64,000 bases of DNA. It comes from a virus (lineage: Duplodnaviria; Heunggongvirae; Uroviricota; Caudoviricetes). The notes beneath the pieces were generated by a model. The model was given only the letters and a program-made list of their open reading frames with translations. It was not told where the DNA came from and made no database searches. Of this stretch, positions 19,343 to 24,059 are shown piece by piece (positions within the stretch are counted from its first letter, which is position 1; the number at the start of each line of letters is the position of its first letter). The DNA lies in the IMG/VR virus record IMGVR_UViG_3300045988_156427; one strand, 5' to 3'. Position numbers and translations under genes: made by a program.

Positions 19343-19359
19343 AGATTTATTAGAGCAAT
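19343..19359 (-). promoter_or_regulatory. C1 operator
   Basis: Reverse complement ATTGCTCTAATAAATCT, 16/17. Confidence 0.7.
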
Positions 19360-19865
19360 CATTGTTGATGAAGAAGCGCATTTTCATACTCCCTGACCAT
19401 TAACGTAAGCACGCCGTGCCTCCTGAAAACACGCGCCACTTCAATCTTATCTTCCAGCGCGAACGCGATTTTACTTAGACCAATTTTCTTAAGGAGATCA
19501 ATCTTTGCTGGGCCGTCATTTCTGTCATCGGTGGCAGGACGCATAGATAGCAAAGGCTCAGCCCCGTTTGTTACGTACTTCCGCAGCCAGGCTCGTGTTT
19601 TATCCCTTGCGATCTCACAGCGCCCGGTTACAAACCAGACCGTGTAAACGTTAAATAACTGGCGCACCATATCAATAACTGGAGTGATGGGAGTATCGGT
19701 GTCACAGGCGAGATTAAACTCGTTCCAGTCCTTTGTTAATGCACCTTTACCTGGTGGCGGAAGCAAATGCAGTCTGTCTTCAGTTGCCTCTGATATTGTT
19801 CCATCAATATCAACTATGACGATATACGGACGTTCCTGGTGTGCGTGTTTATTGAAAATACTCAA
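19359..19865 (-). CDS. HAD-superfamily phosphatase-like protein
   Basis: N-terminal IVIVDIDGT (DxDGT) motif. Confidence 0.55.
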   Translation of the reverse strand: MSIFNKHAHQERPYIVIVDIDGTISEATEDRLHLLPPPGKGALTKDWNEFNLACDTDTPITPVIDMVRQLFNVYTVWFVTGRCEIARDKTRAWLRKYVTNGAEPLLSMRPATDDRNDGPAKIDLLKKIGLSKIAFALEDKIEVARVFRRHGVLTLMVREYENALLHQQ

Positions 19866-19936
19866 ATGCCCTCCTCATTGGACGAAAAAATGCTGGTGGG
19901 CGCACTCCACCAGCATTAAAAGTGACACTGTAACTG

Positions 19937-21199
19937 TCAGCGGACGTAAATAGTGCCGCCGTTCTCTTTTTCCCATGCATCGCTACGTGCATAGCAAACA
20001 TCGAGAAGTCTTCTTGCCGCTGTTTCCTCTAAACCCAATTCGACAACCAACTGCTCATGACGGCGGGTAACCACATCAAACAGGGTATGCAACCCTTTAG
20101 TTGCCAGATCATCAATGAATTCCGGTTCGAACGGCAGCTCTGCATCTGCCAACATAACCTCTTGCGCCCACTCGACACGGCGGACCAGTTCCGGGCGGCG
20201 GCTTTCCATCTCTTTACAGATCAATTCATGGAAGAACTCTACCCAACCTTCCGGCTGGAACTCGCGGAAAATTGCCAACGGCTGGAAGTTTGGCATCAAC
20301 CATTCGTTGATTCGGATATCAATGGCATAGCCCATGTCGCAGCAGAACTGATAAGCAAAGTCCAGCTTAGACACGATATAAGGACGCTCGTTATTGAACT
20401 CTTTAGGCGATGAGATCCCATAAGCCAGGAGGCGCGGGAAGAAGGATATTTGCCCTAACGTCGGATGAAGTTTGCTTGCAGGGAAACGGCGCTCAGTAAT
20501 GCCATACATTTCCTTCTTGAGCGTCGCAAATTTGGCATTCTCATTAACCAGCGCGGTAACCTCTGCTTTTTTATTAGCAAATGCCACGCGCGCCTCGCTT
20601 GCATCTTTAATAGTTTTTTTGAGCTGTTGGTTAAGGTCGGCGACCTGCTTACGCAGTTCCTGTCGCTCGCTTTTAGCTTTGTTATAGCGTTTCTCAAGGT
20701 TAAAAGGATCAAGTTTCATGATCTCTTTATATTGAGATTTTAGCGTTGAAATCTGTGAGTTCCGCAGTTCAACCATCGCGGTCATTTCATTGAGTTTTGT
20801 TTCCAGCTCAATGCTTATACATTCGGCATTATCAGCACGCTGGTTGGCGTCATGCGTCGCATCGTCGATCGCGTCCTGTTGCTGGCGTTTCAAATGTTCA
20901 ATTTGTAGCTGAAGCTCTTCAATTTCTTTACCCTTCAGACCGAGATCCAACTGCATATTTTCAGCTGCATCTACCAGGGAGTTATGGCTATCAGCTTCTG
21001 CGTTATAAACATCAATAAGCTGTGCGTGAAGCATCTCCGCTGACTGAACCGCATTATCAAAAAAACGTGCTGTGAGGTCATCACAACTAACGCGGCGTTG
21101 CGCGGCCCGGATGTTCTGGATAATGGCCGGGATACCGGCATTCAGGACATCAGGGATAGATACATTTTCGATTGATTGGTTTTGTGCTGAAGTGCTCAT
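19937..21199 (-). CDS. coiled-coil protein, 420 aa
   Basis: ORF track; long heptad-rich central region. Confidence 0.5.
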   Translation of the reverse strand: MSTSAQNQSIENVSIPDVLNAGIPAIIQNIRAAQRRVSCDDLTARFFDNAVQSAEMLHAQLIDVYNAEADSHNSLVDAAENMQLDLGLKGKEIEELQLQIEHLKRQQQDAIDDATHDANQRADNAECISIELETKLNEMTAMVELRNSQISTLKSQYKEIMKLDPFNLEKRYNKAKSERQELRKQVADLNQQLKKTIKDASEARVAFANKKAEVTALVNENAKFATLKKEMYGITERRFPASKLHPTLGQISFFPRLLAYGISSPKEFNNERPYIVSKLDFAYQFCCDMGYAIDIRINEWLMPNFQPLAIFREFQPEGWVEFFHELICKEMESRRPELVRRVEWAQEVMLADAELPFEPEFIDDLATKGLHTLFDVVTRRHEQLVVELGLEETAARRLLDVCYARSDAWEKENGGTIYVR

Positions 21200-21200
21200 T

Positions 21201-21419
21201 TCAAAGTTCCGTATTAGCTTGTGCTTCGGTCATTTTTCCTAAGTATGAAGGAGGAAGGACTACGCAATTTGTATCCAGTCCCTCACCTATGGCAGCCTGT
21301 AAAATTCTGGCTAAGGTGAGTCTCTTGTTGCGATACCTGGTGATGACATGCCTGATACCGCCGGTCGGCGTAACAAAGGCGATCAGCCAGTAGTGATATT
21401 TCCGTCGGAATGGCCACAT
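21201..21419 (-). CDS. hypothetical protein
   Basis: ORF track; first ORF after the operator pair. Confidence 0.35.
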   Translation of the reverse strand: MWPFRRKYHYWLIAFVTPTGGIRHVITRYRNKRLTLARILQAAIGEGLDTNCVVLPPSYLGKMTEAQANTEL

Positions 21420-21433
21420 AGTGCACCCTATAG

Positions 21434-21482: not shown

Positions 21483-21499
21483 GGAATTATTAGAGCAAT
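21483..21499 (-). promoter_or_regulatory. C1 operator, inverted partner of 21434..21450
   Basis: Reverse complement ATTGCTCTAATAATTCC, 15/17. Confidence 0.6.
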
Positions 21500-21500
21500 A

Positions 21501-22202
21501 TTATTCTGATTCTCGCTCAAAAAATGAGCTGATAAGGGGAAGCCAATCCTCTGACACTTCGCGAGGTCGCGGTTTGCCGTGGAAAAAGATTATTCGGCAG
21601 TCTTTTGGTAATGCCCCATTCCCCCTGGAGTAACGCGCGCTCGCATATTTTGAACCAGGTTCCACAACATCGGCCTTGTAACTTACAAACCATCCTGGAT
21701 ACAGATCCTGAAATGCTGGTGTATCATCGCCCATAACCTTTCGTAAGAACCCCTGGTCACCCCAGCACTCAGTAGTGACACAACGAGAAATCCAACCTTC
21801 CGGATCTTGCCAGAATGAACTCCAGATATGCGCTTTAACACTATTTGGTATCCACAGGGCACCGCTGCCACGATATTGTGGATGGTAAAAATCCCTAAGC
21901 ATGGTGAAGCTGGTTGGTGGATGCTCTAGGATTGGGCGTATATCACCGGCAATAACCGTGTCCAAATCCAGATAGAACAGATCATCGGTTATATCCGGTC
22001 GGAACAACTCGATTTTCGCCCACCAGCCACGGCACTTTTGCCACTGGTTGATCAATGGGACAACTTTGACGCCAGGTACATGTAAACGCTTCAGGTCTGT
22101 CAGGCAAATAATTTCATAGCCTTTTGGCAGTTGATTAACCAGCCACTGCACATCGGAAGCGTTATAGTCACCACCAGAGCGAAAAACTAAAGCAATCTTC
22201 AT
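21501..22202 (-). CDS. putative glycosyltransferase-like protein
   Basis: YLDLDTVI (DxD-like) motif; weak assignment. Confidence 0.4.
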
Positions 22203-22891
22203 GCTGCACCATCACCTTTCACTTTCATCAATGTCAGGTTTCCGCAAAATACGGCACCAGTGTCGATATACTGCTGATTCCAGAATGTCTTCGGGCTTTT
22301 CACCGGAGTGTGACCAAAGATAAAACGATCTGCGCCCGAAATTTCGCCACCAATATCATCCATCGAATCACTGATACGCTCGCGCGCCCAGACAACGTTG
22401 AAAAGCGGCACCTCCTTACCGAATTGGTATTCATTATCCGGATAGTCGGCATGGGCTATAACGATAGTTTCTTGCCCCGTGTTCAACTCAATGATATAGG
22501 GCAGACGCTTTACCAGCTCCACCAGCGCCCAGGCTAATATTTCCTGATCAGTGTCCAGCATGAAGAACCATTGTCCGCCATTCATTAGCCAGTTATTCAC
22601 GTTGCCATCTGGACTTAACGCATCAATCATCAGCCGCTCATGGTTCCCCATCACTGCCCTGAACCAGGGCATCTGCAATAGTTCCAGACATTCGACATTT
22701 TCAGTACCGCGATCGATAAGGTCGCCGACCGATATCAGTAAATCCTGCGCCGGGTCAAAATCCACACGATGGAGTTCGGACATCAGTCTGGTGTAGCAAC
22801 CATGCAGATCACCAACAACCCAGACATTCCTGTATTTGGTACCGTCGATACGGTGATAAATTGTGGGTGCCATCATGTATTCTTCAGCCAT
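22199..22891 (-). CDS. ppp: Ser/Thr protein phosphatase, calcineurin-like metallophosphatase
   Basis: GDLHG, GDLIDRG, GNHE metallophosphatase motifs. Confidence 0.8.
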
Positions 22892-23499
22892 TCTTTAAGA
22901 GTCATCTGCGGAATACCTCCCATTTTCCCGCATGAAACAACGTCAATCTGTTCACGCGCAGACTGGAATAACAAAGGCAGGTGACTTAGATTTTTTGGCG
23001 TGCCGCCGGAGTGAACGCGTAGTTCTTGCGTAGCGTCAACGCCCACCAGAGCTACATGTTTGAATCCGATATGGAAAGCCAGGTTCAGAGCACCATATGC
23101 ACTATTGCCGCTGGCAATTTCATTCTCATCTTCGCAAAGGCCGAAATGTGCGGACCAGCGCCACGCCCACCACTCGGGAGAATTCGTATTTTTTGGCTCC
23201 ATGCCGCGTTCAGCCACACGACGGAAGCACAGAACGCCATCTCTGACTTCACGTTCTTTAACATCGGGTAGTGCCATGCAATAACAAACACCACGGCGAC
23301 GGCGGCCACGACCAACGCGCCGCATATTGTCTGGGGATGGATCAAGGGTGAAAAAATAAGAAGCGCGGTTAAGCCAGTCGATGGCCCCATTGACCGCTAT
23401 AATCGGCACTCCGCGCGGCGCAACAAAGTTTGCGGCGCTTGGGCCACTGCCGACGATAATAACGCGATCACTGCCTCTAAATTTATTCTTGGGAAACAT
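22873..23499 (-). CDS. Rossmann-like protein with GSGPS motif, paralog A
   Basis: VIIVGSGPS...IIAVNGA...ALVGVD; paralogous to the next ORF. Confidence 0.45.
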
Positions 23500-24059
23500 T
23501 GAATTGCACTGCTCCTACTTGCATTCAAAATATGTAAATCTGCGTGTTTTTTGCGGGTATCCAGGAACTGCTGTTGCCATTTTGAAATAGACACCTGCGT
23601 TGGATTCCGTAGTGCTTGAGGGTGCGCGCCATGCCAATGAAGGCCGTTTTGCAGAGAACAGTCATAGCCGACTAATACCACTACTTCAGCCCCTGATTCA
23701 GCAGCCAGACTGATAGCCTGCGCGCCGCTATTTACCCCTTCCGCCGGTCCACAATATCGCCTGTACTCCAACGAAAATGATTTCGCCGCCGCCAGGTTGG
23801 CTGTCACTTTGCGGAATCTCCCTCCCGGTATGGTGGATCCGTATTGCTTCCACCATGACAAATCACCGGCGTATAAGGCATAAATGTCATCGAACATCTG
23901 CCAGGAATTGTTAACCGCGATGATTGAACAGCCAGTTTTTTCTATAGCAGCACAGTCCTCACGAGTGAGTGACGGACCGCTACCGACACAAAAAACAGTC
24001 CTAGTCGCCCTGGGTGGTATGTTCATTCTCAGCTGCAAATTCAGCCTCCAGGCGAGCAT
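23397..24059 (-). CDS. Rossmann-like protein with GSGPS motif, paralog B
   Basis: VFCVGSGPS...IIAVNNS...VLVGYD; 3-prime end overlaps paralog A by about 100 nt. Confidence 0.45.
   Translation of the reverse strand: MLAWRLNLQLRMNIPPRATRTVFCVGSGPSLTREDCAAIEKTGCSIIAVNNSWQMFDDIYALYAGDLSWWKQYGSTIPGGRFRKVTANLAAAKSFSLEYRRYCGPAEGVNSGAQAISLAAESGAEVVVLVGYDCSLQNGLHWHGAHPQALRNPTQVSISKWQQQFLDTRKKHADLHILNASRSSAIQCFPRINLEAVIALLSSAVAQAPQTLLRRAECRL

Follow-up and report, generated by a model that had tools for sequence, protein, structure and literature searches.

A pmgO-pmgP-pmgQ trio of glycosyltransferase-like genes in the C1-repressed pmg region of a P1-like phage-plasmid

Results

Gene content and C1 control of the region

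The window, a 64,000-nucleotide stretch of viral DNA, comes from a P1-like phage-plasmid, with ∼99% identity to P1 across 19359-24059. All the minus-strand ORFs described in an earlier, sequence-only reading are present and correspond to pmgO, pmgP, ppp, pmgQ, pmgR, pmgS, and pap. DNA identity to the annotated P1 genes, from pmgO through pap, is 98.9-99.6%, so these are known P1 genes of uncharacterized function and not new cargo, as that reading had supposed. We found no paper in the literature giving a function for pmgO, pmgP, or pmgQ. The features are:

24200..24216, plus strand: Op83 (Oppp), C1 operator upstream of pmgN-pmgO-pmgP-ppp-pmgQ
24001..24156, minus strand: pmgN, 51-aa ORF, first in the operon; 59-nt overlap with pmgO
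23397..24059, minus strand: pmgO, 220 aa, MptE-like/sialyltransferase-fold glycosyltransferase paralog 1
23397..23499, minus strand: pmgO/pmgP overlap, 103 nt; pmgP in the -1 frame of pmgO
22873..23499, minus strand: pmgP, 208 aa, MptE-like/sialyltransferase-fold glycosyltransferase paralog 2
22199..22891, minus strand: ppp, lambda-type Ser/Thr metallophosphatase, between pmgP and pmgQ
21501..22202, minus strand: pmgQ, 233 aa, GT8-like (GT-A, DxD) glycosyltransferase; PHROG 1962
21483-21499, minus strand: Op86a, C1 operator, identical to the P1 annotation
21434-21450, plus strand: Op86b, C1 operator, identical to the P1 annotation
21201..21419, minus strand: pmgR, 72 aa, non-enzyme; identical to P1 PmgR
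19937..21199, minus strand: pmgS, 420 aa, coiled-coil protein; PHROG 1660
19889..19917, minus strand: terminator-like hairpin between pmgS and pap, 11 pairs plus a T run
19359..19865, minus strand: pap, 168 aa, TTG start, stand-alone PNKP-type HAD phosphatase domain
19343..19359, minus strand: Op88 (OpmgT), C1 operator controlling the following operon (pmgT)

PmgN is identical to its P1 counterpart, is confined to P1-like loci, and returned no match in a family search. A possible alternative start of pmgO lies at 24026.

The proposal that these genes are under C1 control is borne out: Op83, Op86a, Op86b, and Op88 are all present and match P1 except for one base in Op83. That operator differs from the consensus at four positions, which is why a 3-mismatch consensus scan missed it. 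The genes had also been described as one minus-strand block of enzymes. The strand is correct, but the block is not one unit, since Op86b and Op86a, together with the promoter PpmgR (21434..21499), mark the beginning of a second transcription unit. The region thus combines two or more lytic transcription units of phage P1, all C1-repressed, in a mosaic. The hairpin at 19889..19917 comes from a separate consensus scan only, and its terminator role is predicted. The C1 operator of the pmgN-pmgQ operon implies early, not exclusively late, expression. The enzymes are likewise real, but the block also holds two non-enzyme genes that had gone unmentioned, pmgR and pmgS.

PmgO and PmgP are ancient paralogs encoded by overlapping genes

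PmgO and PmgP align with each other over their profiles (hhalign 97.9%, E 3e-13) and share the motifs picked out beforehand: GSGPS at residue 26 of PmgO and 17 of PmgP, IIAVN at 46-50 and 33-37, and LVGYD (129-133) in PmgO corresponding to LVGVD (151-155) in PmgP. They are real, ancient, diverged paralogs.

Their genes overlap by 103 nt (23397-23499; the estimate was about 100 nt), exactly as in the P1 reference annotation. This is unusually long among phage genes and could in principle reflect a mis-called start or a single gene split by a frameshift error. We consider such an artefact practically impossible. Each ORF encodes a complete copy of the domain, both frames are intact in 68 of 71 independent P1-like viral assemblies, and no alternative start codon is available ahead of the GSGPS motif. 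The pmgP ATG falls inside conserved PmgO "QCF" codons, and the overlap architecture recurs among homologs of only 40-60% identity, in which the ATG keeps its place in the "xCF" codons; the distant relatives L092, L003, and L093 have it at the same PmgO codons. An 18-aa tail of PmgO that is not conserved accounts for the greater length of the P1 overlap. The assembly and homolog comparisons thus refute a split gene or sequencing error. The overlap also contains an A_AAT_TTA heptamer, at 23467-23473.

Folds of the trio and of the neighboring enzymes

Annotation by HMM and structure profiles agrees with the enzymatic folds guessed for all five enzyme ORFs. PmgO and PmgP adopt the Maf/sialyltransferase/MptE fold. 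The sole Pfam match is "MptE-like" (PF01973, for which the P1 proteins score under threshold), and one might therefore take them for pyrophosphokinases that, like MptE or thiamin-pyrophosphokinase, use ATP and would modify a small molecule or a hydroxymethyl group. This is very unlikely: the top structural match of both is a Maf glycosyltransferase, sialyltransferases of two families also match, and the GxGPS, VN, NSG, and GxD motifs align with those of CstII. The two proteins are also obligately linked, and in places fused, to a GT8 enzyme, and are accompanied by additional GT-A genes and sugar-type (FkbM) methyltransferases.

PmgQ, described earlier as a DxD glycosyltransferase-like protein, is GT8-like by profile matches, with no PF01501 match in Pfam. 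Its family profile matches the Skp1 alpha-galactosyltransferase 6mw5 (E 8.5e-7) and glycogenin (E ~0.007). Invariant elements are WW-K63, D79-L-D81-T, GDQ148-150, S174-Y-K176, and HGxPxP208-213. No transmembrane segments were found in PmgO, PmgP, or PmgQ.

The metallophosphatase call also holds for Ppp, which matches PF00149 (E 9e-16), carries all the metallophosphatase motifs (GDLHG, GDLIDRG, GNHE), and is 64% identical to lambda phosphatase, as stated in the P1 record. Pap, called HAD phosphatase-like, matches PF25109 HAD_PNKP (46.5 bits against a cut-off of 27.6) and the Pnkp1 phosphatase domain 4xrp (E 2e-4), has its DxDxT HAD motif (DIDGT) at residues 19-23, and differs from P1 Pap at three residues. 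PmgS gives weak coiled-coil matches only, to SMC, Rad50, and LmuB, and is non-essential (PMC10695390). [quoted passage not shown]

The trio, apart from the phosphatases, recurs in unrelated phages

Only pmgO, pmgP, and pmgQ co-occur, at ∼40 loci in unrelated phages of Alpha-, Beta-, and Gammaproteobacteria and Bacteroidota; the three profiles match together in nearly every related locus, 26 non-P1 or diverged viral contigs included. Its hosts (Enterobacterales, Pseudomonas, Zhongshania, Microbulbifer, Methylophilaceae, Brevundimonas, and Sinomicrobium) are all Gram-negative. Gene fusions join O to P (P0092), P to Q (P0222, P0289), Q to P (P0312), and Q to P to a methyltransferase (P0270). Some modules include class-I SAM and FkbM methyltransferases and further GT-A genes, accessories of a kind common in glycan assembly. 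The cassettes contain no nucleotide-sugar biosynthesis genes, and structural genes flank them directly.

This distribution bears on the proposal that PmgO, PmgP, Ppp, PmgQ, and Pap form one sugar/nucleotide modification pathway, in which the two phosphatases would act on a phosphorylated intermediate. C1 control extends over all the genes, and ppp overlaps pmgP by 19 nt and pmgQ by 4 nt, a translational coupling seen in P1, L092, and L133. However, Ppp, Pap, PmgR, and PmgS are missing from every non-P1 locus with the trio; pap, pmgR, and pmgS are confined to P1-like elements. Diverged P1-like elements (L120, L121, L123, L126, L128) run O-P-Q-pmgR-pmgS with no ppp between P and Q; ppp is a lineage-specific insertion. 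No fusion includes a phosphatase, pap lies in another transcription unit behind the terminator-like hairpin, and lambda has the related phosphatase yet no such cassette. A five-enzyme pathway is accordingly improbable; the glycosylation part of the proposal stands for the trio, which is the functional unit of the region, whereas ppp, pap, pmgR, and pmgS are neighbors outside the cassette.

Discussion

A glycosylation function for pmgO, pmgP, and pmgQ is well supported. DNA, virion, and host surface had all been named as targets; genomic context favors a protein acceptor, probably a virion protein, over DNA. The module directly follows an HK97-fold major capsid gene at seven loci (L088, L100, L111, L118, L124, L127, L130), preceding head-tail connector genes, and in P1 the trio operon comes directly before the head-completion gene pmgR. 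On some chromosomes the trio lies beside Ig-repeat adhesin genes: in Pseudescherichia the PmgO homolog is co-oriented with, and 60 nt downstream of, a 1166-aa inverse autotransporter with 7 Big_1 repeats, and in Serratia it adjoins Big_1 proteins. This placement is reminiscent of autotransporter adhesins that are glycosylated in the cytoplasm. The genes are non-essential, and P1 knock-outs show no plaque defect (PMC9024508, PMC10695390), as expected for a decorative modification.

Several observations count against this reading: the classic moron site after lysis genes (L003, L089, L104), the nucleotide-metabolism placement of L106, the sub-threshold PF01973 scores, the C1 operator, and the lack of an acceptor extension, none being obvious at the C terminus of cassette-adjacent capsid proteins, where the Pfam match ends 2-11 residues from the end. 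In the literature, neither biochemistry nor mass spectrometry was found to show glycosylation of a P1 protein; the paper on the P1 virion proteome describes no such case, though glycosylation was not looked for there.

The enzyme families also resemble those of the LPS core, which makes a lipid-linked acceptor plausible. Of nine Waa proteins from E. coli K-12, only WaaZ is matched by the profiles of PmgO and PmgP, and WaaJ is the one picked by that of PmgQ; the fused homolog P0092 has a faint PF27901 WaaZ_KDO_III match. P1 uses the LPS core for adsorption, and overexpressing waaZ truncates that core. A WaaZ-like Kdo transferase pair and a WaaJ-like hexosyltransferase could thus remodel the P1 receptor, or another lipid-linked glycan, and so block superinfection or keep progeny from sticking to debris; the exclusively Gram-negative hosts and the moron-like sites would fit. 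We nevertheless judge this unlikely. The WaaZ scores are low (12-13 bits), C1 repression in the lysogen argues against lysogenic conversion, and a short lytic cycle would leave only newly made LPS alterable. Nor does it explain the repeated capsid/connector insertion and adhesin-gene adjacency. Knock-outs had no plating phenotype (PMC9024508).

Glycosylation of phage DNA is a known strategy, and the cassette might instead modify phage DNA or RNA against restriction or other defenses. The L106 cassette adjoins ribonucleotide reductase and a MazG-like gene, and in P1 the operon is driven early, from a promoter under C1 control. We regard this as highly improbable, since no locus encodes a hydroxymethylase or base-modifying partner and the cassette is found mostly among head or lysis genes. 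P1 DNA is not known to carry hypermodified bases. Knock-outs leave anti-restriction activity unchanged (PMC9024508).

We therefore tentatively favor a cytoplasmic glycan-building cassette that acts on protein, probably virion protein. PmgO and PmgP, with the fold of CMP-sugar-dependent Maf, sialyltransferase, and WaaZ transferases, and PmgQ, a GT8-type, probably UDP-hexose-dependent, retaining enzyme, would work as soluble cytoplasmic proteins during lytic growth. Overlapping, translationally coupled genes may fix their proportion, and a PmgO-PmgP complex is probable. The product would be a short glycan of one hexose and one or two acidic keto-sugars, with UDP-Glc/Gal, CMP-Kdo, or similar nucleotide sugars of the host as likely donors. 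The acceptor is most likely a protein, a virion (head) protein being the likeliest candidate in phages.

Relation to known systems

Maf flagellin glycosyltransferases and Campylobacter CstI/CstII (GT42) share the MptE-like/DUF115 fold with PmgO and PmgP, at a sequence identity of only 13-17%. Unlike these enzymes, PmgO and PmgP are an obligate paralog pair, and they are minimal single domains of ∼200 aa, compared with 632 aa for Maf. Most hosts, including E. coli K-12, are not known to make CMP-sialic or CMP-pseudaminic acid, so the donor probably differs. CMP-Kdo, the donor of the LPS core KdoIII transferase WaaZ, is available in every host seen. WaaZ (283 aa in E. coli) acts on a lipid-linked core, and its "FLSGPTS...IIAVNGS" resembles "GSGPS...IIAVNGA" of PmgO/PmgP. 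PmgQ has three motifs of GT8 retaining enzymes (glycogenin, Skp1 alpha-galactosyltransferase, WaaJ/WaaO): DxD, GDQ, and, at the C terminus, H..P(K/R)P, with the histidine two residues off in profile alignments. Two of the GT8 enzymes matched act on proteins; PmgQ, at ∼230 aa, lacks the extra domains of the GT8 enzymes named. Ppp is closest to lambda Ser/Thr phosphatase and E. coli PrpA/PrpB, and matches the PrpA/PrpB-like NCBIfam family (E 3e-81) below the equivalog cut-off (272 against 326 bits). Pap is closest to the T4/Pnkp-type HAD 3'-phosphatase domain and has no kinase domain; neither is tied to the trio beyond close P1 relatives.

Phage-encoded glycosylation, which we infer for the P1 trio, is demonstrated in mycobacteriophages. 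Their hosts are Actinobacteria, and reports on these systems describe no CMP-sugar-type transferase pair. As proposed for P1, Che8 (gp110), Corndog (gp38), and Myrna encode their own glycosyltransferases. Mycobacteriophages use such enzymes to glycosylate capsid and tail-tube proteins; the genes lie among structural genes, in some phages with a methyltransferase alongside, and are dispensable for plaques (PMC12363180). With the trio common to many unrelated phages and often beside a capsid gene, phages of Gram-negative bacteria may likewise sugar-coat their own proteins.

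Resident P1 Genes in at Least Two C1-Controlled Units

Within this block of minus-strand genes, pmgO, pmgP, and pmgQ very probably form a joint cassette for building a glycan. The queried stretch is 98.9–99.6% identical to phage P1 and to P1-like phage-plasmids such as SJ46, P7, and RCS47, and its genes carry P1 names, confirming the suggestion of a sequence-only reading that they are resident P1 genes and not new cargo. PmgN, PmgO, PmgP, and PmgR have no residue changes relative to P1; the remaining proteins of the block differ by 2–5 residues.

Genes (from P1 records) and C1 operators of the block, in window coordinates

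24200–24216, Op83, P1-annotated C1 operator, one base unlike P1
24001–24156, minus strand, pmgN
23397–24059, minus strand, pmgO
22873–23499, minus strand, pmgP
22199–22891, minus strand, ppp
21501–22202, minus strand, pmgQ
21483–21499, Op86a, P1-annotated C1 operator, present
21434–21450, Op86b, P1-annotated C1 operator, present
21201–21419, minus strand, pmgR
19937–21199, minus strand, pmgS
19359–19865, minus strand, pap
19343–19359, Op88, P1-annotated C1 operator, present

A search with the 17-bp asymmetric consensus of the C1 operator (ATTGCTCTAATAAATTT-like) returned 16 sites in the window, where 0.32 would be expected. Op83, Op86a, Op86b, and Op88 occupy their P1 positions at operon promoters; by these sites the block belongs to the P1 C1 regulon, with repression predicted. 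The genes had been described as lying in one minus-strand block under C1 control. The P1-annotated operators are all present, and their layout therefore splits the block into two or more units, each predicted to be controlled by C1. One of these is pmgN-pmgO-pmgP-ppp-pmgQ, whose successive genes overlap by 59, 103, 19, and 4 nt. The next, pmgR-pmgS, is preceded by an 81-nt spacer containing two operators and a promoter. A strong terminator-like hairpin (19889–19917; 11 pairs and a T run) divides pmgS from pap. Late read-through into the block is possible, because LPpmgL, a late promoter that lies upstream of pmgL, has the same sequence as in P1.

The sole indel relative to P1 in the region is a single base at 19884/19885, just downstream of the pmgS-pap hairpin. 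Op83 carries a C to T change at its first position, and three positions differ from P1 across the predicted PpmgN region (24200–24255). No ribosome-binding site is apparent at the annotated pmgO start, which lies within the overlap with pmgN (59 nt, 24001–24059). With a start at the in-frame ATG at 24026, PmgO would have an N terminus resembling those of its homologs; residues 1–20 of the PmgO model are of low confidence. Published data on pmgN conflict, with CRISPRi indicating an essential gene (plating efficiency about 1e-2) and a knockout library a non-essential one (PMC10695390). A simple polar effect fails to explain this, because every gene further down the operon is dispensable (PMC10695390). 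Upstream of the operon, PmgM (24223–24801) resembles VRR-NUC-type nucleases, with a Pfam match just below threshold, and also matches a PHROG Holliday-junction-resolvase family; it accompanies the cassette only in P1-like elements. Alignment to P1 ends left of about 18470. The pmgT homolog there (orf242, 18436–19164) has a C terminus unlike that of P1, and the place of P1 pmgU and pmgV is taken by a 292-amino acid PAPS-reductase/PP-loop protein (17554–18432; PF01507) with weak DndC-like and TilS-like matches.

The metallophosphatase and HAD phosphatase recognized from the sequence are both recovered by profile searches. Ppp is of the lambda-phosphatase type, scoring 59.3 bits against PF00149 (cut-off 21.5), with GDxHG, GDxxDRG, and GNHE motifs at residues 27, 56, and 82; it falls below the NCBIfam PrpA and PrpB equivalog cut-offs. 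Pap scores 46.5 bits against PF25109 (HAD_PNKP; cut-off 27.6) and has a DIDGT nucleophile motif (DxDxT) at residues 19–23. With 168 residues in total it lacks a kinase domain and is thus a stand-alone phosphatase, not a PNKP. PmgR, an essential head-completion factor (PMC9024508), and PmgS, a non-essential coiled-coil protein, are not enzymes. No membrane-spanning segments were found in the proteins of the block, and PADLOC reported nothing relevant.

PmgO and PmgP Share a Sialyltransferase-Type Fold

Pairwise comparison of PmgO and PmgP by BLASTP gives a weak match (E = 0.003 over 36 residues), and each protein matches the PHROG family of the other. Profile-profile alignment with hhalign of 32 PmgO and 34 PmgP homologs, from which the row for an O-P fusion (P0092) in the PmgO alignment was left out, covers 160 columns with a probability of 97.9% (E = 3.2e-13). 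Pfam PF01973 (MptE-like) scores 23.4 bits on PmgO and 20.9 bits on PmgP, both below the gathering threshold of 34.6, and 44.6 bits on the P-domain of a fused homolog (locus L089, 9001–10131); a precomputed PF01973 match is present on many further homologs. The AlphaFold models are confident (pLDDT 88.4 for PmgO and 93.9 for PmgP), and both proteins have the fold of the MptE-like/DUF115 superfamily, shared with Maf, CstII-type sialyltransferase, and WaaZ. The earlier description of Rossmann-like paralogs holds and can be sharpened to an MptE-like, sialyltransferase-type fold; the GSGPS, IIAVN, and LVG[YV]D motifs on which it was based belong to the invariant core of the two families. The GxGPS(L), VN, (N/T)SG, and GxD motifs are invariant across both and align to motifs of CstII, where they line the CMP site. 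PmgO and PmgP are predicted to be CMP-sugar-dependent transferases, with a fold that is also that of ATP-dependent pyrophosphokinases.

PmgQ Resembles GT8 Glycosyltransferases

No Pfam family matched PmgQ at E ≤ 0.01, PF01501 (Glyco_transf_8) included. A profile of 26 homologs (A1) matched the GT8 Skp1 alpha-galactosyltransferase 6mw5 in the PDB with E = 8.5e-7 and glycogenin with E = 0.007–0.01, and the PmgQ profile scored 19.3 bits against E. coli WaaJ. Residues D79-x-D81, G148-D149, S174, K176, and H208-G-x-P-x-P are invariant in the 26 sequences; conservation of Q150 and Y175 is 90% or higher. In the alignments with 6mw5 and glycogenin, the DxD and GDQ motifs fall on the DxD and GDxG of those enzymes; the metal-binding His of GT8 enzymes (before KPW) sits two residues upstream of PmgQ H208 in HMMER alignments. 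The DxD and GDQ motifs and the GT8 profile matches substantiate the DxD glycosyltransferase-like protein proposed from the sequence. PDB searches with the single PmgO or PmgQ sequence were uninformative. RefSeq already labels PmgO “alpha-2,3-sialyltransferase” and PmgQ “glycosyltransferase.”

The pmgO/pmgP Overlap Is Genuine

The two paralogous genes overlap by 103 nt, with pmgP read in the −1 frame of pmgO. The 208-amino acid PmgP and the 220-codon PmgO frame are both intact in 68 of 71 P1-like viral contigs, and the placement of the pmgP ATG is conserved in homologs, which rules out a frameshift or sequencing error as the origin of the overlap. PmgP has no alternative start codon between the upstream stop and its GSGPS motif. 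Its ATG falls in the same conserved PmgO codons (Q/K/T-C-F, read as NNA-TGY-TTY), even in homologs that are only 40–60% identical. The overlaps with this conserved placement measure 49 nt in Pantoea (L092), 94 nt in C. rodentium (L003), and 40 nt in Chimaeribacter (L093); in Pseudomonas (L088) and Zhongshania (L100) the overlap is 11–13 nt. The greater length in P1 comes solely from an 18-residue non-conserved tail of PmgO, which is modeled with low confidence and is absent from most homologs.

Across 22 distinct junctions, pmgP lies in the −1 frame of pmgO at 19. The P1 overlap contains an A_AAT_TTA heptamer (window 23467–23473, minus strand), and in-phase X_XXY_YYZ heptamers occur at eight junctions, P1 included (the others listed are L092, L100, L103, L117, L126, and L128), while 14 have none. 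Such heptamers are more frequent there than in the remainder of the two genes (8/607 versus 22/7976 codons; odds ratio 4.8, p = 9e-4); relative to out-of-phase positions there is no clear enrichment (p = 0.08). Downstream RNA folding in P1 is not significant (z = −1.3). Much of the heptamer signal can be put down to how closely the sequences are related and to their conserved Phe-Pro-Lys/Leu codons. That −1 frameshifting yields an O-P fusion protein in some members, perhaps in P1, is given a low probability.

PmgO, PmgP, and PmgQ Travel Together

Related loci were found with PmgP alignments, and profiles of all block proteins were mapped onto 21 loci, which came from encoding contigs or from species-representative genomes, as well as a further 26 viral contigs, either non-P1 or diverged P1-like. 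Homologs of PmgO, PmgP, and PmgQ co-occur in almost every one of them; a single-protein scan with PmgQ found matches in P1-like contigs only. The hosts, all Gram-negative, comprise Enterobacterales, Pseudomonas, Zhongshania, Microbulbifer, Methylophilaceae, Brevundimonas, and Sinomicrobium (Bacteroidota). Virion gene sets vary among the loci and include those of lambdoid phages, an HK97-like siphovirus, an SU10-like podovirus, and Mu-F-containing phages.

Ppp, Pap, PmgR, PmgS, and PmgN are restricted to P1-like elements in this set. The sequence-only reading had placed all five enzymes in one pathway; as a conserved unit this is rejected, since outside P1-like elements the trio occurs without the phosphatases. 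Diverged P1-like contigs (L120, L121, L123, L126, and L128) have the order pmgM-O-P-Q-pmgR-pmgS and lack ppp, so this gene was inserted into the cassette recently; Ppp may have been recruited in the P1 lineage.

An exhaustive profile search yielded 512 PmgP-family representatives at 50% identity, among them the P-Q, Q-P, and Q-P-methyltransferase fusions listed below. The occurrence of fusions with the three proteins in varying order strongly supports a shared role in one process.

Fused homologs

P0092, O-P fusion, 376 amino acids, in frame, in one podovirus-like contig
P0222 and P0289, P-Q fusions, metagenomic proteins
P0312, Q-P fusion, metagenomic protein
P0270, Q-P-methyltransferase fusion, metagenomic protein
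Locus L089, 9001–10131, fused homolog with a P-domain

An obligatory GT8 partner would be poorly explained if PmgO and PmgP acted as pyrophosphokinases, and this role, with which the fold alone is compatible, fits poorly. Glycan building is also indicated by other genes inside the cassette, which encode class-I SAM methyltransferases (L100, L110, and L111), FkbM-type methyltransferases (L106, L130, and L131), or additional GT-A-like transferases (L088, L089, L115, and L125). Such a combination of methyltransferases and extra GT-A genes is what a small cassette for glycan building would contain.

Proposed Donors and Acceptor

Nucleotide-sugar biosynthesis genes were not seen in any locus with identified flanks, where structural genes flank the cassette directly; the donors must therefore be common host metabolites. 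For the predicted GT8 enzyme, UDP-hexose is a safe guess. To our knowledge, CMP-Kdo is the only CMP-sugar made by all the hosts found, and we infer that it is the donor for PmgO and PmgP, consistent with their weak resemblance to WaaZ.

Seven loci with at least four different layouts (L088/L118, L100/L111, L124/L127, and L130) have the cassette just behind the HK97-fold major capsid gene and ahead of the head-tail connector genes. In P1, it is placed directly before the head-completion gene pmgR.

On Pseudescherichia and Serratia chromosomes, the cassette genes are interleaved with those of adhesin, other Big_1, or RCC1-repeat proteins, and in both genera PmgO is co-oriented with a Big_1 neighbor within 60 nt. 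In the Pseudescherichia locus L094 (1345–11338), a 1166-amino acid inverse autotransporter with seven Big_1 repeats is followed, after 60 nt and in the same orientation, by a PmgO homolog. Loci L095–L098 have the O/P/Q arrangement of L094, in which the layout was annotated, and more Big_1 proteins adjoin PmgQ in Pseudescherichia. In the Serratia locus L087 (1674–4115), PmgO precedes two Big_1 proteins by 58 nt.

The capsid-gene and adhesin-gene neighborhoods both favor an acceptor that is a protein and receives its modification in the cytoplasm, a proposal that we hold at even confidence. More tentatively, gene context suggests a P1 virion protein. The main alternative to a protein acceptor is remodeling of LPS: both enzyme families have relatives that act on the LPS core, and several cassettes occupy moron sites after lysis genes. 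Modification of DNA is unlikely, given contrary gene contexts and unchanged anti-restriction activity in knockouts (PMC9024508). Knockouts have no plaque or anti-restriction phenotype (PMC9024508, PMC10695390), which fits a decorative modification. The furthest-reaching proposal, that in P1 and a wide range of tailed phages of Gram-negative bacteria a dedicated PmgO-PmgP-PmgQ complex places a short glycan with Kdo or another keto-sugar on a virion (head) protein, is somewhat more doubtful still.

Discussion

Both the genes and the way they are regulated have been described before. No functional study of pmgO, pmgP, pmgQ, or the cassette was found in the searchable literature. Nor did that literature recognize O-P-Q as a mobile, widely shared cassette, or describe its fusions, conserved overlap, or capsid- and adhesin-gene neighborhoods. 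In the annotation of the P1 record, “pmg” stands for “putative morphogenetic function” and is applied to many genes; for pmgO, pmgP, and pmgQ this label is probably wrong. Their products are probably enzymes, not structural parts, in a compact cassette passed around among unrelated phages, and the system is best classed as a predicted phage-encoded glycosylation cassette.

If the cassette glycosylates virion proteins, it would be the first such system described from phages of Gram-negative hosts, in a textbook phage. It could influence the stability of virions, their recognition by the immune system in phage therapy, and delivery vectors based on P1, and it would offer new minimal CMP-sugar-type transferases for study. 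Were LPS the target instead, the cassette would represent a new receptor-modifying strategy during lytic growth. For the proposed modification of a protein, the glycosylation of autotransporter adhesins provides one parallel. Another is the known glycosylation of capsids and tail tubes in mycobacteriophages (PMC12363180); virion glycosylation, shown so far only in those phages, would then reach phages of Gram-negative bacteria.
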